Assembly: GCA_002305195.1 (NCBI GenBank)
Contig: DBQK01000007.1
Coordinates: forward strand, 47,676 to 111,675
Source of the DNA: Patescibacteria group bacterium UBA1396
GTDB taxonomy: Bacteria; Patescibacteriota; Microgenomatia; UBA1400; UBA1396
Direction of reading: 5' to 3'
DNA length: 64,000 bases
Shown here: positions 3,934 to 41,639 of the stretch, one piece after another
Layout of the letters: each line of letters starts with the position of its first letter
How positions within the stretch are numbered: position 1 is the stretch's first letter
Translations under genes and position numbers: made by a program
Notes under the pieces: generated by a model
Databases searched by the model: none
What the model was told of the DNA's origin: nothing
Seen by the model: the letters and a program-made list of their open reading frames with translations, nothing else

Positions 3934-6037
3934 TTAGTCGAATCGATAAACCAGTTAGACCCATTAAACTAGCCAGACTAATTCCAACTTGCAGGGGCGA
4001 ACCAGTTTCTGGTAATTCTGTTGGAACCTCACCTTTTTTGGTCACTGGCTTCTCGCGTCGATTGCCAAACACAACCAGCTTAATTTTGTTTTCATCGACA
4101 GTAATGGTTTTTTCGGTGTCGGTAGTGGCGGTCCAACCGCTCTTGGTCTTTTCTCTAATGCGAACCACATCACCTTCTTCTAAGCCTCCAACTTCACCAC
4201 CTCGGCCGTCTTTCTCCTCATAGGTAATGTAATCTCGCCAGTCGTCATCATGATTGAGATCCCATTCAAATTCCCAGTCAAGACCTGGTTCTTCCTCATC
4301 GCGATAACCGTCGCCATCGTGGTCGTCGAATTTAGCTATCACAAAGCCACCGCGCTCTTCTTCTTCAAAGCGGTAATGATCGGTACAATTATCAGCTACA
4401 TTTGTTTCGGAGGCGCAGTTACCGTTCTCACAGGGAATACAGCGGATATCAAAGTACTCGCTGATCTCAATTTCCGGAGAGACATTGCTTGAACTAGAGG
4501 CTAAAACCGAGTAGTTATCACCTTTGCTGCGTCGATACTCAAAGGTGTAACTGTTTATTCCGTTATAAGCGGTACAAACAAAGCTAACTTTTTCATTTTC
4601 TTTTACCTTTTGATCATCTTTTGGCTCGATATCTTCACAGTAAGGAGCCTTTGGCGTTGGACTAGGACTGGGGCTAGCTTTTGGTGTTGGACTCGGGCTT
4701 GCCTTAGGTGTTGGTGAAGGACTTGGAGATGGCGAAGCCTTTGGTGTGGGTGAAGGCGAGGGGCTCGGTGAAGGTGATGGAGATGGAGACGGGCTAGGAC
4801 TCACTTTAGGCGTTGGGCTGGGACTCACCTTGGGAGTGGGCGAGGGGCTCGGTGAAGGTGATACTTTTGGCGTTGGACTAGGACTGGGGCTTGGGCTAGG
4901 ACTTGCCTTAGGTGTGGGTGAAGGACTTGGAGATGGTGTTGGGCTGGGAAGTGGTTGTTGTACTTTTGCTTTGAAATAAGCAACCAATTTGAAATCCCAG
5001 CAACCTTCAACTTCGCCATTACGGCCAACAGTTATACCATCTGGAGTAATAATGTTATCTGACTGTGGTTGATTGATATCATAACAACCAAACAAGCTTG
5101 GACAACCGTGAATTCTAACAGTACCTGGAACGAACTCAAGTGAAAAAGCGGTTTCATCAGTTAGTTCAACATTACCGGTCACTGGATCAGCATTATCGGC
5201 ATCAATAAAGCCGGTTATGGTGTGCTGGGTTAGTGTTTCTGTTGGCCAATCAAGAATTCCAACATTAGTGTTCAGAGACTTTGTTCCTCTGGGGTTGTTA
5301 TGAATTACTAGCTTGAACTCAACTTCATCGTTAGGAGAAAGACCATTGATTGATTCACGAAAATCGGTTTCACCCAAGCGTCTGATTTCCAAGGTTGGTT
5401 CGTCGGTTGAGTGAGCGTTAAAGATAGCTTTATTGCCATCAACAACCTCTAATTCGTATTTAACGGTATATTGATGGTTGGCGCCTGACTCGGTTTGTCC
5501 GCCAATAATATTTTCCCAATGAAAGCCAATTTCCGGATCCTTACTTACAGAAAATAATTTGCTTTCAGCTGCGTAATTATCGGGAATTGATTCAACTACC
5601 CAATCGCCACTTACATTGGTAAGAGCTTTGGTTGAACCCCGCTTATAGCTCAAGCTAAGATTATCTGCAAGCTCAAAAGTAGCTTGATTGCCACTGCCAA
5701 GATTGCCTTTATTGTCTGGATTAACCCAGGCAAGCACTCCATCATGGGCGAAGGCTCCGTAGTATTGCAGACTATCAATGGTTCTGCCCTCGTCTGTGTA
5801 GGTAGCTACTAAGTAAACGTGGATGGTATCTCCAACCTTCAGATTATCTAAGTGACCAGAAGTTGGGCCATCGATGGTGTTAACTCTTAATTGAGTACCA
5901 TAAACCAGGCCCTCAACAGGATCTGCTTTGGAGCTAAATTGCAGCCAACCAACAGAGGCAAAACCACCCAAAATAAACAGTGAAAATAAAATAGCGAGTA
6001 AGTTTTTGCTGGTTAATTTCGCAATTTTTTTAAACAT
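3911..6037 (-). CDS. LPXTG-anchored surface protein with a Pro/Ser/Thr repeat stalk and an SdrD-B/Cna-B-like domain
   Basis: N-terminal signal peptide ([17 protein letters not shown]). C-terminal sorting signal LPETG plus hydrophobic helix plus RLIGLRLKP. Acidic [15 protein letters not shown] module. AGGAG SD before the ATG at 6037. Confidence 0.85.
4647..4950 (-). repeat. tandem coding repeat, units PSPSP(S)TPK[A/V]S
   Basis: About 300 nt of imperfect short tandem repeats visible in the DNA (ggactnggnctnggn...ttnggngt). They encode the [18 protein letters not shown] stalk of the LPETG protein. Confidence 0.8.
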
Positions 6038-17059: not shown

Positions 17060-17236
17060 ATGGCAGTAGGTAAATCAGCAAAGGGCAAGAGGGGTTTGGC
17101 CTCAGCTTCTAAGGCAACTCGCAAGCGGGTAGCGGCCGCCGGCGGAAAAGCTCCCCATCGCTTGCGTGGCTTGCAAGCTGCTTCTAAGGCGACCAAGAGA
17201 CGAGTAGCGGCTCTCGGCGGCCGCGCCAGTCGGTAA
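17060..17236 (+). CDS. small KGG-repeat (stress-induced) protein, 58 aa, not in ORF track
   Basis: ATG 7 nt after an AGAGGAGG SD. Translation is MAVGKSAKGKRGLASASKATRKRVAAAGGKAPHRLRGLQAASKATKRRVAALGGRASR. It has two copies of RGLxxASKATxxRVAAxGGxA, with the same spacing as the KGG motif RGFAxMDxExxREIAxKGGxA. DNA differences between the copies are largely synonymous or conservative. The region is locally GC-rich. Confidence 0.55.
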   Translation: MAVGKSAKGKRGLASASKATRKRVAAAGGKAPHRLRGLQAASKATKRRVAALGGRASR

Positions 17237-17252: not shown

Positions 17253-17759
17253 CTATTTTTTGTTAACTGAACTAATATATTTGGCCGGATTTTTAATGAA
17301 TTTTTCATAGCAGCCGGTAGCGCAGAAATAGTAGGACTCGCCTTGATACTTAATACCAACACTAGCAGTTTTGGGTGACAATCTCATATGACAAACAGGG
17401 TCATGAACTAGCGGTACCAAATCCGTCATTTTTAAGGTCAGTTCATCTACTAGTTTTTGATCCTTCAAATCTTGAGCTTGTTCAACCAACACTTCTCGAA
17501 TTAAATCGCTCGCTTTAACGAAATTAATATGGGATAGCCGATAGTAAACGTTTTTACCCTGCTTTTTAGTTTTAAGAATATTAGCTTCTTTGAGAATTTG
17601 CAGGTGCTGGCTTAGATTTGCTTGAGGTAGTCCCAACATTTCCTGAATATCACTTACACAAAGCTTTTGATTTCTTAATAAGTGAATAATTTCCAGTCGC
17701 TTAGGATGTGACATTGCCCTGAGAACTTTGGAATGTAAAGCAAAAATGTGATGATACAT
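17253..17759 (-). CDS. ArsR/SmtB-family metalloregulator fused to a C-terminal YHS (TRASH-like) metal-binding domain
   Basis: wHTH region HPKRLEIIHLLRNQKLCVSDIQEMLGLPQANLSQHLQILKEANIL. C-terminal DPVCHMRLSPKTASVGIKYQGESYYFCATGCYEKFIKNPAKY matches YHS. The track ORF extends to 17885, but that extension covers the promoter and palindrome. Met43 (ATG at 17759) gives a normal ArsR length. Confidence 0.8.
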   Translation of the reverse strand: MYHHIFALHSKVLRAMSHPKRLEIIHLLRNQKLCVSDIQEMLGLPQANLSQHLQILKEANILKTKKQGKNVYYRLSHINFVKASDLIREVLVEQAQDLKDQKLVDELTLKMTDLVPLVHDPVCHMRLSPKTASVGIKYQGESYYFCATGCYEKFIKNPAKYISSVNKK

Positions 17760-17801
17760 ATTAGGTATCTCGAATTTATTGCTTGGTGAGAGAAATGTCA
17801 A
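17754..17801 (-). promoter_or_regulatory. putative arsR-YHS promoter (TTGACA-17-TAAATT) with operator core overlapping the start codon
   Basis: On the minus strand: TTGACA (17801-17796), a 17-nt spacer, TAAATT (17778-17773), then GAGATACCTAATATGTATCATC. The core ATACCTAATATGTAT (17768-17754) is identical to the one at 41598-41612 and contains the ATG. Confidence 0.5.
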
Positions 17802-17812
17802 GGCTGTATGCT

Positions 17813-17854
17813 GAAGGCGCGATACTTTTTTTGCAAAAAAAGTATCGCGCCTTC
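17813..17854. repeat. perfect 42-bp palindrome
   Basis: GAAGGCGCGATACTTTTTTT-GC-AAAAAAAGTATCGCGCCTTC has 20-nt perfect arms. It lies in the divergent spacer between the arsR-YHS gene and dtd. Confidence 0.95.
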
Positions 17855-17916: not shown

Positions 17917-18351
17917 ATGCGGATTGTGATTCAAAGAGTAACCCAGGCGAATGTTAGGGTTAAAGATCAAGACATTGGTCAGATTAATTCTGGTTTAGTG
18001 TTGTTGGTTGGCTTCTCACCTACTGATTCGATCCAAACGGTCCAACAAATGGCAGATAAAATTAGTCATTTAAGAATTTTTGCTGACAAGTCTGACAAAA
18101 TGAATCTGGATATCAAGCAGGTGGGGGGCGAAGTTTTAATAATTCCCCAGTTCACCTTATATGGCGATTTATCTGGCAGAAGACCTGGCTGGCAGCAAGC
18201 TGCCAGCCCTGAACTGGCTAACAAACTTTATCAAGAGTTTATTAAAGCAATCAGAACTCACCAATTAAAGGTTCAAACCGGTCAATTTGGCGCTCATATG
18301 CAAGTTGAATTAATCAACGATGGGCCGGTAACTTTTTATTTAGAAAATTAA
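17917..18351 (+). CDS. dtd: D-aminoacyl-tRNA deacylase
   Basis: 144 aa. MRIVIQRVTQANVRV...GLVLLVGF...IPQFTLYGD...GRRP...F is the canonical Dtd pattern. Confidence 0.9.
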   Translation: MRIVIQRVTQANVRVKDQDIGQINSGLVLLVGFSPTDSIQTVQQMADKISHLRIFADKSDKMNLDIKQVGGEVLIIPQFTLYGDLSGRRPGWQQAASPELANKLYQEFIKAIRTHQLKVQTGQFGAHMQVELINDGPVTFYLEN

Positions 18352-36320: not shown

Positions 36321-39221
36321 TTATAACCTGGGTTGCGAATTGAAAGTACCCTGTTTCAGTGTCAGCGCATTAATGACCACAATTACTGATGAGAAACTCA
36401 TCAACAAGGCACCCACTGCTGGAGTTAAGCTAAATCCAAACGGGATAAACAGACCGGCTGCGGCCGGGATGGCCACAATGTTATAGCCCAGTGCCCAAAA
36501 AAGATTTTGTACCATCTTGGCATACACCTTTCTAGCCAACTTGATAAAAACAACCACATCTTGAGGATTACTGCTAGTTAGAATTACATCGCCAGCTTCA
36601 ATTGCCACCTCAGTCCCTGCTCCGATTGCAATACCAACGTCTGCTTGGGTTAGTGCCGGTGCATCATTAACTCCATCACCTACCATTACGACCACATTCC
36701 CTTCATCCTGGAGATCTTTAATGTACTTATATTTATTTTCTGGCAAAACTTGGGCGAAAAATGTGTCGATGCCCAATTCTTGTGATATTTTAGCCGCTAT
36801 TTTTTCATTATCGCCGGTTAACATTGCCACCTTTAATCCTAGATTATGAAGTTCTTTGACTGTCTGTTTAGAATTGTCTTTAATCTCATCAGCTAAAACT
36901 AATTCTCCAAGGATTTTATTATCTGAAACTATAGCTACGGGAATTGATTGATACTTACCAATAAAATATTTTTTACCTTCAACTACTCCCTCAATTCCTT
37001 TTCCGGCAATATTTTTCACCTGGCTAGCACTGCTTGTTTTTACATTCTTTTCTTTGGCATATTTAACTATCGACTGACCAATTAAATGTGTTGAGTGCGA
37101 CTCAAGGCTAGCTGCAATGCCTAATAGTTGGGTTTTATTTCCGTTTTTAGCGATAATTTTTGAGACGCCAAACTCACCTTTGGTAAGAGTGCCTGTTTTA
37201 TCAAATACTATGTAGTTAGCTTTTTTGGCTATCTCCATTTTTGCCATATCTTTAATAAATAAGCCATTTTCAACAGCTAATTTTGTGGCAATAGTCGAAA
37301 CAGTCGGAATGGCAAGTCCTAAAGCGTGTGGACAAGCAATTACCAACACAGTTATAGCTAGTGTTAAGGCAAAAGCAATTGGTGATCCGGCAATAAATAC
37401 CCAAATAACAACCGTCAAAATTGATACCGAAAGCGCCGTCAATGTGAGCCAGCTAGCTGCTTGATCAGCTAACTTCTGTGCGGATGGTTTGGTTTCACCC
37501 GCCTTCGCGATAAGTTTTTGTATTTGCCCGATGGTTGAGTTCTCTCCCACTTTGGTTAACTTAATTTCAACCGATCCATCAATGCAGATTGATCCAGCTA
37601 CAACCTTATCCCCCCTGAATTTGTTAAGAGGCTTGCTTTCACCGCTAATATGAGCTTCATTAAAATTAGAAGAACCACTCATAATCTGTCCATCGGCCGG
37701 TACTTTTTCACCAGCTAGAACACGAACTAAGTCACCTTCTTTTAGCTCTTGTAACTCGACCTTTTGTTCACTGCCATTTTTAATTAATCTGGCACTTTTA
37801 GGTAGTAATTTTGCGACTTCTTGCAAGGCATCACCGGCAGCCATAGAACTTTTTGCCTCCAAAAAATGACCAAAAAGTAAAATCCAAATTAGGGTTGAGA
37901 TTTCTAAATAAAATTCTGCATTAAGCGTTGGTAAAAAAGTTGAGGCTGTCGAAAATAAATAACCAGCCGTGATGGCAATGGAAACCAGAGTCATCATTCC
38001 ATACTGACGAGTAGAAATTTCAAGTTTAGCGTGTTGCAAAAACACCAAGCCAAAGTAAAAAATTAAGGTTGAGATCGTAAATTGCAAGATAGGCTGATCT
38101 AAACGACTAAATATCAATAGCGGCACGAGAAGTCCGGTAACAACAAAAAATCTTTGCAGAAAACTTTTTGCTGCATTAGGCTCGGCCATCATATTTGAAT
38201 GGTTATGATGACTGTGATGCCTGATGTCATCTGGTTTTGTACTTGAATTAATTAAGACTAAATCCATTCCTCCACACTTAGAACACTTACCAGGTTGGTC
38301 AGAAGTAATTTCAGGGTGCATCGGACAAGTGTATTTGTGATCATTGTTATCCACAGTTCCATTATTAGAGCTAAAGACCTTTTTGACAAATTTATATACA
38401 AAATACATTCCAGCAGTAGCAAAAATTAAGTCTAGACCAGGCTCACTGTTGACAGTTTCTGAAATGTTAAAGGCAATATTGTTGATAAACTTAGTAACCT
38501 GGCTTTCTGCCACCGTCATTCCTAGTTTTCCGATAGATGTGAGCCAGAGCATCAAAACACCGGTTACTCCAAATATTAGTGCAGCAACAACATTGGAAAC
38601 AAAAATATAATAATCTTTCTGTCCTATTTTTACCTGTCCAATCACCTTTTTTAGAACTGGTGCTTGTAGAATATTTTTCTTATGGATCCACAGTGAAGCT
38701 AAGTATAGTGGTGTAACCATACCTAATACATAAGCCATACCTACACCCAAAGATTGAAAAAACGTGGGACTTAGCGAGCTTAAAGTTACCACCCCAATTA
38801 AAACTGGCGCACAACAAGCACTGGTAATCCCTGAAAAAATTCCTAAAGTAAATGTTGAAAGTACATCATTATTCCGTTTACCATTTTGTTTGAAAGAAAT
38901 ATGGGGTATTGGGAATTTGACACCTAGCAAAGACAGCCCAGCTAAAATAAGCATAAAAACGCCACCGAAAATGTATGTTTGGTCATGAAGTTCAAAAAAC
39001 AATGATTGCAAGGCTTTGGCTCCCAGGACGATCGGCATCATCACCATCAGAATGCCCAAAGAATAAATCAGAGTCATAAAAAGCACTTGTTTGCGCTCTT
39101 TAAAGATGTTGCCAAGATAGGCGGGAAATAAGTAAGAAATACAGCAGGGAGCAAAAAGTGCCACTATTCCAGCGATGTATGCGGCGACTAAAGAGATTTG
39201 GTATAAACCTGAGGATTCCAT
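36321..39221 (-). CDS. fusion protein: CcdA/DsbD-like thiol-transport membrane domain + HMBD zinc-ribbon + His-rich segment + CopB-type P1B heavy-metal ATPase
   Basis: The N-terminal ~290 aa have the motifs FAPCCISYLFPAYLG and TSACCAPVLIGV in TM helices (CcdA-like PC motifs, here CC). Next come YTCPMHPEITSDQPGKCSKCGGMDLV and RHHSHHNHS. The ATPase core has VIACPHALGLAIP (CPH), FDKTGTLT, MLTGDN and GDGVNDAPAL. Confidence 0.85.
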   Translation of the reverse strand: MESSGLYQISLVAAYIAGIVALFAPCCISYLFPAYLGNIFKERKQVLFMTLIYSLGILMVMMPIVLGAKALQSLFFELHDQTYIFGGVFMLILAGLSLLGVKFPIPHISFKQNGKRNNDVLSTFTLGIFSGITSACCAPVLIGVVTLSSLSPTFFQSLGVGMAYVLGMVTPLYLASLWIHKKNILQAPVLKKVIGQVKIGQKDYYIFVSNVVAALIFGVTGVLMLWLTSIGKLGMTVAESQVTKFINNIAFNISETVNSEPGLDLIFATAGMYFVYKFVKKVFSSNNGTVDNNDHKYTCPMHPEITSDQPGKCSKCGGMDLVLINSSTKPDDIRHHSHHNHSNMMAEPNAAKSFLQRFFVVTGLLVPLLIFSRLDQPILQFTISTLIFYFGLVFLQHAKLEISTRQYGMMTLVSIAITAGYLFSTASTFLPTLNAEFYLEISTLIWILLFGHFLEAKSSMAAGDALQEVAKLLPKSARLIKNGSEQKVELQELKEGDLVRVLAGEKVPADGQIMSGSSNFNEAHISGESKPLNKFRGDKVVAGSICIDGSVEIKLTKVGENSTIGQIQKLIAKAGETKPSAQKLADQAASWLTLTALSVSILTVVIWVFIAGSPIAFALTLAITVLVIACPHALGLAIPTVSTIATKLAVENGLFIKDMAKMEIAKKANYIVFDKTGTLTKGEFGVSKIIAKNGNKTQLLGIAASLESHSTHLIGQSIVKYAKEKNVKTSSASQVKNIAGKGIEGVVEGKKYFIGKYQSIPVAIVSDNKILGELVLADEIKDNSKQTVKELHNLGLKVAMLTGDNEKIAAKISQELGIDTFFAQVLPENKYKYIKDLQDEGNVVVMVGDGVNDAPALTQADVGIAIGAGTEVAIEAGDVILTSSNPQDVVVFIKLARKVYAKMVQNLFWALGYNIVAIPAAAGLFIPFGFSLTPAVGALLMSFSSVIVVINALTLKQGTFNSQPRL

Positions 39222-39225
39222 TTTT

Positions 39226-39339
39226 CTAGTCAGCTTTCTTCCAAAAATACCTGATTAATACGACCTGAAGGAGAATAAAAAGAACATTAATAATTTCCCA
39301 AAAATAACCAAAACTAGGATTCATCATGTTTGTCATCAT
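39226..39339 (-). CDS. unannotated 37-aa Met-rich single-TM peptide
   Basis: Translation is MMTNMMNPSFGYFWEIINVLFILLQVVLIRYFWKKAD. Its ATG overlaps the TGA of the rhodanese gene (ATGA). Its TAG ends 4 nt before the ATPase ATG. It is too short for the ORF track. Confidence 0.45.
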   Translation of the reverse strand: MMTNMMNPSFGYFWEIINVLFILLQVVLIRYFWKKAD

Positions 39340-40079
39340 TTCTTAATAACGTTAGCTGTAATAGTTGCTGAAAGTTGGGGAAAATTTTGATTGTCGGTAT
39401 CAATGTAAATAGTTCTGGTCAGATCTCCTAAGTCAGTATCGTCTTTGTGTACCGCTGGATTAAAAGAAACCTTCACCAGGGTTGATTCATAAGGCTCCAG
39501 AGAATCTTTTTCTACTTCTGCGCTAGTGCAACTGCAGGAAGTTGACACTTTTGTTATTTCAAGTTTCTGAGTGGAGAAGTTGGTTAGGGTAAACTCGGCT
39601 TCAGAAATTTCTCCATATATTACGGTTCCTAAGTCACGAGTTACTGGGCTGATTTCAATAGCTTCATTTTGTTCTTTATAGCCGTTAATTCCACCAGCTA
39701 AATTAATAACATTGGTATACCCAAGATTCTTGAGTTCAACAGCGGCTTCTTGACTCATTGATCCTGATCGGCAATAAACAAGAATTTGGGTATTCTTGTC
39801 TGAAGGTAACTGTTGCAGATTATCAGATATCTCATTGTAAGGGATGAAGGCATCAGTGCCTGGGATATGACTTTGTTCTGGAATATGAACATCCAGCAAG
39901 AAAGCATTATCATTTTTAGATAGTTGTATAAACTCAGCTGTATCAACACTAGTTATCTGGTAATCAAAACCACTCAGCTCAGATTCAGCCTCATTTGTGT
40001 ATCTGGTTAACCAATATGTTGCACCGATACTTATAATAAAAGTTATTATCAGAAAAATTGTAATAATTCTTTTATACAT
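39336..40079 (-). CDS. membrane-anchored rhodanese (sulfurtransferase) fused to a DUF1573 domain
   Basis: Rhodanese region LLDVHIPEQSHIPGTDAFIP...ILVYCRSGSMSQEAA..L..LGYTNVINLAGGINGY with an active-site Cys loop. C-terminal EFTLTNFSTQKLEITKVSTSCSCTSAEV is a DUF1573-type region. N-terminal TM. Confidence 0.75.
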   Translation of the reverse strand: MYKRIITIFLIITFIISIGATYWLTRYTNEAESELSGFDYQITSVDTAEFIQLSKNDNAFLLDVHIPEQSHIPGTDAFIPYNEISDNLQQLPSDKNTQILVYCRSGSMSQEAAVELKNLGYTNVINLAGGINGYKEQNEAIEISPVTRDLGTVIYGEISEAEFTLTNFSTQKLEITKVSTSCSCTSAEVEKDSLEPYESTLVKVSFNPAVHKDDTDLGDLTRTIYIDTDNQNFPQLSATITANVIKK

Positions 40080-40082
40080 ACG

Positions 40083-41006
40083 TTATGCTCCACAACTAGT
40101 GCCTACGTTTTCTGTTCCTGGAATATTTCCAATTTGTTTCTTAATGTCTTGATAGCCTTGGGCACTACTATATTCAGCTGAGAGAACTGTTTGGGGGTTA
40201 ACATCTTCCCAAGCTATACCCTTTTCGGTTTCAAAATAATATGCTAGATCGACATAGGTAGTTGTAAACCAGTAGGAGTTAAAGGCTAAAGATGCCTCAT
40301 ACATTTCTTCTGAGGTCGCACCATTGGCAGCCATTAGTTCCAAAAGACCTAGAATCGCCATACCATGGTTGCAATCGGGAAAACTGGTTGGGTTGCCGCA
40401 GCAGGGTCGATAAATATTACCGCTTACCTCTGTCACCAAATCTTGCTGTTGTTGAGTTAAAGGTATGATTTCAGTGCTTGAGTATAAACTAACCGCATCA
40501 CGCTTGCCCAAAGTCCAGCCACCTGTTGAAGCAAAATTACCGATTCTATCTTGATATTCAGTGCCCATTACTCCTTTGGTTAAGACATCGCTTTTTTGTG
40601 TTAAACCTAACGCCCAAAGAGTGTTTACCCAAAAGTAAGCATTCTTAGGTGTAATGGTGATGCCTTCATTTTTTTTCTCGGTTAAATATGTAAGTAATTC
40701 TTGATAATCTGAATCAGGGTAGTTTTCTCTAAACTTTTCTAAATCAATGCCGCCTGCCTGAACTAATTTTAATCCAGTTTCTCCCCAATTTATATCAACG
40801 CTATAACCTTCATTAGGAGCTACTGTGTTGGCTAAAGAATTAGCGTCTAATGCTTTAGCTGCATTTTGTACTTCTGCATTATTGGCAATTTTTGGAGGTA
40901 CCAAAATATCAGAGTTTCTAACTATTAATAGGTAGGCGACTGTTAGTCCCAAGCCAGCAATTAGTATATCTTTTTTGTTATTTTTTAATCTGTTTATTAT
41001 TCTCAT
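40083..41006 (-). CDS. hypothetical membrane-anchored exported protein with CCGNPTSFPDCNHG motif
   Basis: 307 aa. N-terminal TM (ILIAGLGLTVAYLLIV). Cys/His cluster YRPCCGNPTSFPDCNHGMAILG and a C-terminal TSCGA. No family recognised. Confidence 0.55.
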   Translation of the reverse strand: MRIINRLKNNKKDILIAGLGLTVAYLLIVRNSDILVPPKIANNAEVQNAAKALDANSLANTVAPNEGYSVDINWGETGLKLVQAGGIDLEKFRENYPDSDYQELLTYLTEKKNEGITITPKNAYFWVNTLWALGLTQKSDVLTKGVMGTEYQDRIGNFASTGGWTLGKRDAVSLYSSTEIIPLTQQQQDLVTEVSGNIYRPCCGNPTSFPDCNHGMAILGLLELMAANGATSEEMYEASLAFNSYWFTTTYVDLAYYFETEKGIAWEDVNPQTVLSAEYSSAQGYQDIKKQIGNIPGTENVGTSCGA

Positions 41007-41010
41007 ATGA

Positions 41011-41550
41011 CTACTTCCTCACCATTGCAGTTAACATAAAATTTAACTGTGGGTTTGAGGGATCGTTGGTATCTACTTTTACCTGTCTATTTATCGGACC
41101 CACTCCACTTGGCCCATGAAACGCAGGGTCAAAAACAATCTTAAGCTGTGCCGTTTTACCACTTGGAACTTCAAGTGTATAGCCAGACTTGGTATGCATA
41201 CCAAAAATGGGCGAACTTTCTTCAGCATAACTGAGTTGGGCAGTAGTACACATACAAGATGTTTCTACGTTAGATAATATTAAAGAATCATTTCCAGCAT
41301 TTGTTATCTCAAATACTTTTTCAACATTACCATCATTAATTTCTATTTCTCCCCAATTGTAAGTAAATTCATCAATCACGGCTTTTGCTTCTGGATTTAT
41401 CTGAACTTCAGCTGGACTATTAATTGTTGAAGCAAGATATACTCCTGGAATTAACAATATAATTATGGCCACAAATGTGAGGATCATAAATTTGTTTTTT
41501 CCCAGCAAGCTATTTTGTTGTACTGGTTTAGCTTGAGATTTCATACGCAA
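41011..41550 (-). CDS. DUF1573 domain protein (membrane-anchored, exported)
   Basis: FEITNAGNDSLILSNVETSCMCTTAQL and later FDPAFHGPSGVG. The track start is a TTG at 41550. An ATG at 41544 with a GGAGG SD 10 nt upstream is the alternative. Confidence 0.7.
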   Translation of the reverse strand: MRMKSQAKPVQQNSLLGKNKFMILTFVAIIILLIPGVYLASTINSPAEVQINPEAKAVIDEFTYNWGEIEINDGNVEKVFEITNAGNDSLILSNVETSCMCTTAQLSYAEESSPIFGMHTKSGYTLEVPSGKTAQLKIVFDPAFHGPSGVGPINRQVKVDTNDPSNPQLNFMLTAMVRK

Positions 41551-41594
41551 CAGACCTCCGGTAATAATTAATTTTTAATTGCCCCAGTTATTTG

Positions 41595-41639
41595 AGAATA
41601 CATATTAGGTATTCTGAATATGTAATATAAAGTTGTCAA
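41595..41639 (-). promoter_or_regulatory. putative operon promoter (TTGACA-17-CAGAAT) with palindromic operator AGAATAC-N7-GTATTCT
   Basis: On the minus strand: TTGACA (41639-41634), a 17-nt spacer, CAGAAT (41616-41611). The perfect 7-7-7 inverted repeat at 41595-41615 overlaps the -10 and start region. The core at 41598-41612 is identical to 17754-17768. Confidence 0.5.

Follow-up and report, generated by a model that had tools for sequence, protein, structure and literature searches.

The question raised by this locus is why the same short sequence lies at the promoters of two transcription units that are located far apart in a patescibacterial genome. The window analyzed here, a 64,000-nucleotide stretch of contig DBQK01000007.1 of Patescibacteria group bacterium UBA1396 (assembly GCA_002305195.1, positions 47,676–111,675 of the forward strand), contains the gene of a regulator that combines an ArsR/SmtB-type winged helix with a C-terminal YHS/TRASH domain (ArsR-YHS or ArsR-TRASH) and an operon that encodes a copper-type P1B ATPase. 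An initial annotation, made from the DNA letters, had proposed that the regulator is autoregulated through an operator that contains its own start codon and recurs at the distant operon. Sequence, domains, conservation, gene order, covariation and motif statistics were brought to bear on this proposal. It appears quite likely, short of certain, that the regulator is an autoregulated, probably Cu(I)-released repressor of the ArsR/SmtB type, with a C-terminal sensing domain of three cysteines and with leaderless or near-leaderless promoters; the five alternative explanations weighed below share roughly a quarter of the probability.

The palindrome at the regulator promoter

When one genome was scanned for each GTDB species, relatives of the regulator were detected in 550 species; 80 regulator loci, essentially all from Microgenomates-type Patescibacteria, were fetched, and their upstream regions were aligned at the regulator start codon. 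These regions share a 24-bp palindrome, ACATATTC-N8-GAATATGT (consensus A-Y-ATATTC-N8-GAATATGT; up to 3 mismatches in the 16 arm positions were accepted as a match). Of the 79 loci, 73 have the palindrome no more than 80 nt upstream of the regulator, and in 63 loci, the ATG of its right arm is the start codon of the regulator. As the proposal of an own operator would have it, an operator-like palindrome covers the regulator promoter and the start codon in 63–73 of 79 relatives. There are just 24 other matches in 1.24 Mb, and a base-frequency table derived from all 77 usable loci, with no pre-selection of the matching ones, is still strong. The near one-to-one co-occurrence of the palindrome with the ArsR-YHS gene suggests that it is bound by the regulator, presumably as an ArsR-type dimer: the inner TTC/GAA triplets are ~11 bp apart, and this spacing, in adjacent major grooves, would suit a single winged-helix dimer.

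In the window, the promoter that the initial annotation had read on the minus strand upstream of the regulator is indeed present (Table 1). Its -10 is followed by cga-GATACCTAATATGTATC-atc on the minus strand, with the ATG at 17759–17757, i.e. 13 nt past the -10 and, as originally claimed, inside the 15-nt core of the element that had been singled out; the N-termini of the homologues mark this ATG as the true start. The left arm of the palindrome (site 1) overlaps the -10, whereas the right arm holds the start codon. No Shine-Dalgarno sequence is found between the -10 and the ATG, and the predicted 5' untranslated region is ~7 nt long. From the -35 to the ATG, this promoter follows the 36-nt register that is common to 25 relatives.

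Across the family, two classes of spacing separate TTGACn from the ATG, 36–37 nt (25 loci) and 29–31 nt (23 loci), and membership in these classes covaries with the sequence of the operator, i.e. with which of the embedded -10 elements is optimal. In the 36-nt class, T at -19 in all 25 loci creates TATATT in the left arm, 17 nt past the -35, with 13 nt from the -10 to the ATG and a predicted leader of ~7 nt. In the 30-nt class, C at -19 (21 of the 23 loci) and T at -12 (20 of the 23) create TAATAT, TAAAAT or TATTAT in the spacer of the palindrome; this -10 ends 6 nt before the ATG in the 23 loci, and therefore, the predicted transcription start coincides with the A of the ATG, so that the mRNA would be leaderless. 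None of the 78 regulators examined has a Shine-Dalgarno-like site. Because the -10 lies inside the operator and the right arm usually holds the start codon, the mRNA is predicted to be either leaderless or equipped with a ~7-nt leader, which agrees with the near-leaderless mRNA suggested initially.

Repressors of the ArsR/SmtB family typically have AT-rich palindromic operators over the -10 and +1, and together with this precedent, the position of the palindrome argues for repression. Whichever -35 register is used, a protein sitting on the palindrome would mask both the -10 and the transcription start predicted from the promoter sequence; in the absence of metal, the dimer would thus block RNA polymerase. 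Two or three tandem copies of the operator are located upstream of the regulator in some relatives (L017, ~1–70; L106, 294–586; L038, upstream of 10001), which suggests cooperative or multi-dimer binding in these lineages. An RNA hairpin was also considered as the explanation of the palindrome and was rejected: with the predicted transcription starts located within the palindrome or beyond it, the two arms would not be transcribed together. A search of Rfam at gathering thresholds yielded nothing at either of the two sites in the window.

The regulator protein and its surroundings

The regulator consists of a winged-helix domain (residues ~10–95) and a YHS/TRASH domain (residues 118–163), so that the initial description of a YHS domain on an ArsR scaffold stands. 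The scores exceed the respective cutoffs for Pfam HTH_5 (55.9 bits vs 22), NCBIfam NF033788 (88.1 bits vs 55) and Pfam YHS (52.1 bits vs 30.3). The ArsR model HTH_5 is the best helix-turn-helix (HTH) model, with HTH_24, at 18.8 bits, remaining under its cutoff of 21.9. With phmmer, the regulator matches SmtB, BigR, HlyU, NolR, CzrA and CadC (E-values of 5e-11 to 1e-7); the similarity to BigR is weak and sub-threshold (57.6 bits, cutoff 155). In the AF2 model of the regulator (pLDDT 85), the winged-helix domain is accompanied by a long helix, a linker and a small beta/alpha domain, and in Foldseek, the N-terminal half superposes on SmtB, CzrA and HlyU over ~87 residues (target TM 0.77–0.83). 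No solved chain spanning both domains was found in the search for PDB matches.

The putative sensing site is located in the appended domain. The cysteines of the pattern C123-x22-C146-x3-C150 have the spacing of TRASH domains (C-x(19-22)-C-x3-C) and are the sole invariant cysteines among the 44 aligned regulator sequences. The canonical sensory sites of ArsR proteins (alpha3 CVC, alpha3N Cys, alpha5 Asp/His) are missing from this alignment: there is no invariant cysteine in residues 1–110, the cysteine of ‘LCVSD’ is variable, and there is no His/Asp cluster in alpha5. Binding of Cu(I) or Ag(I) to C123, C146 and C150 would release the repressor and induce the regulator along with the pump operon; the pump signatures described below, along with the precedent of the archaeal CopR, point to copper as the effector.

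The search yielded 653 homologues of the regulator, 159–165 amino acids long; more than 90% of them begin with the conserved M1 and Y2. Because the homologues have this length and M-Y N-termini, the regulator start is assigned to the ATG at 17759–17757 (168 amino acids), the 210-amino acid form being too long. The full-length ArsR+YHS architecture comprises a few dozen clusters at 50% identity. The public annotation (P0001, 17253–17885, minus strand) corresponds to the longest open reading frame (ORF), that of 210 amino acids, and begins 42 codons too early, with the extra N-terminal codons running across the promoter, the operator and a hairpin.

Between the regulator promoter and the divergent dtd gene (17917–18351, plus strand), there is a perfect palindrome with a 19-bp stem, GAAGGCGCGATACTTTTTTTGCAAAAAAAGTATCGCGCCTTC (17813–17854), which is single-copy in the window. 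This palindrome also holds GATAC/GTATC, probably by coincidence, and might be an insulating terminator or a protein site. Convergent with the regulator is a GC-rich ORF of 58 amino acids (17060–17236, plus strand) with a GGAGG Shine-Dalgarno sequence and two internal repeats of the form RGLxxASKATxxRVAAxGG. Its best Pfam match, LacI (E-value 0.083, 13 bits vs a cutoff of 27), is not meaningful; in a genome with a GC content of 39%, this ORF looks like a real gene for a small basic protein.

The copper-ATPase operon and its copy of the element

In ~75 of the 80 loci, a protein homologous to the ATPase or to its N-terminal membrane domain is encoded within 10 kb of the regulator, nearly always downstream and on the same strand. 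In one layout (49 loci), the regulator is directly followed by a CopA-type pump (CPC, MxxSS and N-terminal CxxC). In the other, it is followed by DUF1573, orf307, sometimes a rhodanese-DUF1573 protein, a 280-amino acid membrane protein and a CopB-type pump (CPH and HMBD; 15 classified). Because the copper-ATPase operon normally starts with the regulator gene, one operator serves the regulator and the pump. The window shows the second layout, except that ~24 kb separate the regulator from the operon; in this genome, the regulator gene has apparently split off from the copper-pump operon.

The operon is headed by a second copy of the palindrome (site 2), with one mismatch to the family consensus, a match equalled in none of the 100 shuffles. 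Its promoter follows the 30-nt register that is common to 23 relatives: the -10 is located in the operator spacer and ends 7 nt ahead of an ATG. This ATG opens a remnant of the regulator gene, which keeps the family N-terminus MYSQI and the first 14 nt of which are identical to the regulator start of a relative (L035). To judge by its sequence, the operon promoter is the ancestral regulator promoter from which the regulator ORF has been deleted, the regulator being now located elsewhere, behind its own copy of promoter and operator. After the split, each transcription unit would have kept a promoter with an operator copy, that of the operon still carrying the first codons of the regulator. The descent of both sites from the ancestral regulator promoter accounts for their sharing even the non-consensus spacer. 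In a gap-tolerant alignment of the site-2 region with the full regulator genes of relatives, aimed at the deletion junction, only the promoter, the operator and the first codons align credibly, the remainder being noise.

The 15-mer ATACCTAATATGTAT is, as originally reported, identical at 17768–17754 and 41612–41598 on the minus strand, in exactly two copies, each just downstream of TTGACA-N17. The claimed recurrence of the element at the distant operon is real, in that the same element stands before the copper-ATPase operon; it is not independent, given that the operon carries the ancestral regulator promoter that was left behind.

The maintenance of site 2 can be assessed by comparison with L081, a metagenomic contig of a close relative (DUF1573 protein 88% identical), in which only the operon side is visible. 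This contig encodes MYSQIFEV at the position of the remnant, and the 1.2 kb that precede the same operator contain no regulator gene. The block that extends from the -35 through codon 5 of the remnant is identical in the window and L081 at 52 of 53 positions, and the operator at all 24, compared with 67% identity in each of the two segments of flanking intergenic DNA. This footprint and the family-wide conservation of the palindrome speak for both sites having been kept by selection. The conservation continues for 11 nt past the right edge of the operator (+4 to +14, TATTCTCAAATA; window 41589–41599, minus strand; L081 1189–1199), and the next 27 nt are only 67% identical. This stretch might be conserved as the first part of the transcript, as a leaderless mini-ORF that is translated, or by chance.

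Additional operators with their own TTGACA and at most 2 mismatches were found in other genomes before the DUF1573 operon (L006, L043, L074 and L095), before CopA (L033 and L043), before a paralogue of orf307 (L015) and before a small membrane protein (L075/L076), and a site with 3 mismatches precedes a gene with an HMA domain (L022). These operators occur where the gene order departs from the usual layout. In several of them, the right arm is not a start codon, which makes the palindrome independent of the coding sequence.

The pump of the window belongs to the copper-translocating family (TIGR01511, 556.7 bits vs a cutoff of 397) and matches Pfam E1-E2_ATPase and HMBD. The motifs ‘ACPHALG’ and ‘MSFSS’ of its translation correspond to the CPH of transmembrane helix 4 (TM4) and the MxxSS of TM6, and with CPH in TM4 plus HMBD, the initial label of a CopB-like ATPase is appropriate. 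The N-terminal 290 amino acids (38352–39221, minus strand) constitute a multi-pass membrane domain, which contains two Cys-Cys motifs and, in most of the relatives, is a separate gene of ~280 amino acids just upstream of the CopB-type pump. This domain has no Pfam match even at E-values up to 5, so that the label ‘CcdA’ given to it initially was not confirmed. The start of the DUF1573 protein is assigned to the ATG at 41544, because an upstream TTG is not conserved in the alignment with L081. The orf307 family (300–330 amino acids) has a Cys-rich motif, CCGNPTSFPDCNHG, and no relative in Pfam, NCBIfam or PDB. A third match to the family motif in the window, with 3 mismatches, at 40105–40128, lies inside the coding region of orf307 and was discarded as being at chance level (0.61 expected).

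Many records of metagenome-assembled genomes with this operon (L001, L002, L005, L006 and others) are titled ‘uncultured Pseudomonadales’ or ‘Gammaproteobacteria’, and their taxonomy looks mislabelled. Elsewhere in the window (4650–4920), there are GC-rich direct repeats of ~26–27 nt, ~84–216 nt apart, that probably encode a repetitive protein segment.

Table 1. Features of the two transcription units in the window (positions as in the 64,000-nucleotide stretch).
Feature	Position	Strand	Description	Evidence
Regulator gene	17253–17759	-	168 amino acids; ArsR/SmtB winged helix and C-terminal YHS/TRASH	Pfam, NCBIfam, N-termini of homologues
Element of the initial annotation	17753–17769	-	GATACCTAATATGTATC; 15-nt core 17754–17768	Present in the sequence; dyad axis is not the conserved one
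Operator site 1 (predicted)	17756–17779	-	24 bp; ATAAATTC-GAGATACC-TAATATGT	Family palindrome, register 0 as in 63 relatives
Regulator promoter (predicted)	17773–17801	-	-35 TTGACA 17801–17796, 17-nt spacer, -10 TAAATT 17778–17773	Promoter scan, 10 of 12 positions
P1B copper-type ATPase	36321–39221	-	966 amino acids; CopB-like CPH in TM4 and HMBD motif	TIGR01511, Pfam
Rhodanese and DUF1573 protein	39336–40079	-		Pfam Rhodanese, DUF1573
orf307	40083–41006	-	Conserved protein of 307 amino acids	In ~30 related operons
DUF1573 protein	41011–41544	-	Membrane-anchored; first operon gene	Pfam DUF1573; GGAGG at 41559–41555
Regulator-gene remnant	41568–41603	-	ATG TAT TCT CAA ATA ... TAA = MYSQITGAIKN*	Read from the sequence
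Operator site 2 (predicted)	41600–41623	-	24 bp; ACATATTC-AGAATACC-TAATATGT; heads the DUF1573-orf307-rhodanese-ATPase operon	1 mismatch to the consensus
Operon promoter (predicted)	41611–41639	-	-35 TTGACA 41639–41634, 17-nt spacer, -10 CAGAAT 41616–41611	Promoter scan, 10 of 12 positions

Competing explanations and known systems

Several observations weigh against the autoregulated copper-responsive repressor or narrow its reach. The 15-nt repeat is unremarkable by itself: there are ~20 separate exact repeat pairs of at least 15 nt in the window, and ATAC-N7-GTAT, which is confined to these two places in the window, appears at least twice in 13 of 100 shuffles. Because the repeat alone is not rare, the case rests on the family motif and the relatives. 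Site 1 has non-consensus bases at two positions that are well conserved in the family (A at -17 and T at -4). Both window sites have T at -4, where G is found in 62 of the 63 motif-matching relatives (63 of all 77), and the window arms are, therefore, less symmetric than those of the family. The identical spacers (ATACC) of the two sites may reflect common descent rather than selection. Many distant DUF1573 operons in metagenomes have neither the regulator nor the operator nearby, which limits the regulon link to a subset of lineages. Some relatives of ArsR, namely BigR and SqrR, sense sulfur species, and because the operon also encodes a rhodanese, a non-metal effector retains a low probability.

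The repeat counts and the shuffles could be taken to mean that the two 15-mers are a functionless chance repeat in an AT-rich window. The probability of this is practically negligible, and the explanation is already contradicted by the location of both copies on the family palindrome, in promoters and beside functionally linked genes, as well as by the full conservation of site 2 in L081 compared with its flanks. It is also highly improbable that the dyad recognized is GATAC-N7-GTATC (ATAC-N7-GTAT), the inverted arms that the initial annotation had emphasized, instead of the 24-bp palindrome. The arms GATAC/GTATC do exist at site 1, and ATAC-N7-GTAT is present in both window sites, with differing symmetric extensions (GATAC/GTATC and GAATAC/GTATTC). 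However, what is conserved at the orthologous promoters is the 24-bp palindrome (73 of 79), not this dyad: the axis of the dyad is 6.5 bp to the right of that of the palindrome, its right arm is merely the Met-Tyr codons, and it is absent from the nearest informative relative (L010, ATATCTAATATGTAC). Because the C that it requires at -6 is found in only 4 of the 63 relatives, the recognized dyad is almost certainly AYATATTC-N8-GAATATGT. Inheritance without function would mean that the regulator was copied or moved along with its promoter and that the operon copy is a decaying remnant, still a promoter but no longer bound by the regulator. The regulator codons at the operon site are compatible with such decay, and so is the identity of the ATACC spacers, which is not a family feature. 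The operon operator is nevertheless closer to the consensus than the regulator's own site and is perfectly kept in L081 amid diverged intergenic DNA, and other genomes independently have operators before DUF1573 and CopA genes without an adjacent regulator, so that this explanation is very unlikely.

Of somewhat greater, still small probability is the binding of the palindrome by another protein, or its being a signal for the promoter or for leaderless translation rather than a repressor site. With the -10 and the ATG inside the palindrome, part of the conservation could come from constraints on the promoter or on initiation; on the other hand, a promoter does not require dyad symmetry of the arms, the element stands before other genes without an ATG in the right arm (L006, L033 and L043), and its near one-to-one co-occurrence with the ArsR-YHS gene points to the regulator. 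A low but appreciable probability is assigned to a regulator that binds this operator and responds not to copper or silver but to another thiophilic metal, a persulfide or a redox signal. The rhodanese domain encoded in the operon and the sub-threshold similarity to BigR fit such an effector, and copper specificity is not proven for TRASH/YHS domains. Against it, all the classified adjacent ATPases are copper-type (CPC with MxxSS and N-terminal CxxC, or CPH with HMBD), the ATPase of the window is above the threshold of TIGR01511, the only invariant cysteines of the regulator are those of the TRASH domain, and the TRASH domain of the archaeal CopR mediates Cu/Ag-dependent release from DNA (PMC7830388).

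Thus, a Cu(I)-released, autoregulated repressor remains the preferred explanation. A broader generalization, toward which the evidence may be said to lean slightly, is that ArsR-TRASH proteins are the main cytoplasmic copper sensors of Microgenomates-type Patescibacteria and a structurally distinct class of bacterial Cu(I) sensors, convergent with CopR, in which one 24-bp element functions as promoter, operator and translation start. If this generalization is valid, the operator embeds two alternative -10 registers along with a leaderless start codon, and the element is a portable unit that may stay behind or be copied when a regulon splits. To our knowledge, almost no transcription factors or promoters have been characterized in Patescibacteria (Candidate Phyla Radiation, CPR). 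This uncultured group now gains a regulator family (~550 GTDB species) with a 24-bp operator, predicted ligand residues and a target operon. The conserved promoter anatomy (sigma-70-like TTGACA, two -10 registers and no Shine-Dalgarno sequence) provides rare comparative evidence on promoters and leaderless translation in these bacteria. In the part of the literature that could be searched, no description of the ArsR-YHS family or its operator was found.

The logic of an autoregulated ArsR-type repressor that heads a metal-efflux operon is classical, whereas the architecture of the sensor, the predicted dual-register leaderless promoter embedded in the operator and the CPR context appear to be new. 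ArsR/SmtB metalloregulators head or flank their own efflux operons in CadC-cadA of pI258, CzrA-czrB, SmtB and ZiaR, and BxmR responds to Cu and Ag. With such systems (cadCA, czrAB), the regulator described here shares the winged-helix fold, the AT-rich imperfect palindrome over the -10 and the predicted transcription start, the first place in a P1B-ATPase operon and, putatively, autoregulation and derepression by metal. Unlike them, it lacks the alpha3N, alpha3 (CVC) and alpha5 ligands and has its invariant cysteines only in the appended YHS/TRASH domain; furthermore, the operator holds the start codon of an mRNA predicted to be leaderless or near-leaderless, and the hosts are Patescibacteria/Microgenomates. 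The established cytoplasmic copper sensors of bacteria are CsoR, CopY and CueR, with which the regulator would share the role of controlling a copA/copB efflux operon in response to Cu(I). Their folds are unrelated, with no similarity to the regulator found in Pfam or NCBIfam, and the operator sequence corresponds neither to the cop box TACAnnTGTA nor to a GC-rich CsoR site.

The closest parallel to the sensor architecture is provided by archaeal CopR/CopT (Pyrococcus, Thermococcus and Saccharolobus), which also combine an HTH domain with a C-terminal TRASH domain and are encoded beside a copper P-type ATPase. CopR, the DNA binding of which is weakened by Cu and Ag in vitro, and less so without the TRASH domain, is an Lrp-like, octameric activator that recognizes TTNNCAWWWTGNNAA upstream of the B recognition element (BRE)/TATA (PMC7830388). 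By this description, CopR is set apart from the regulator of the window, which is bacterial and has an ArsR-type rather than an Lrp-type HTH. The operator sequence differs as well, and its position on the -10 and the start implies repression instead of activation. Should the patescibacterial regulator prove responsive to Cu(I), the combination of ArsR with TRASH would join the bacterial copper sensors and link them to the HTH-TRASH regulators of archaea.

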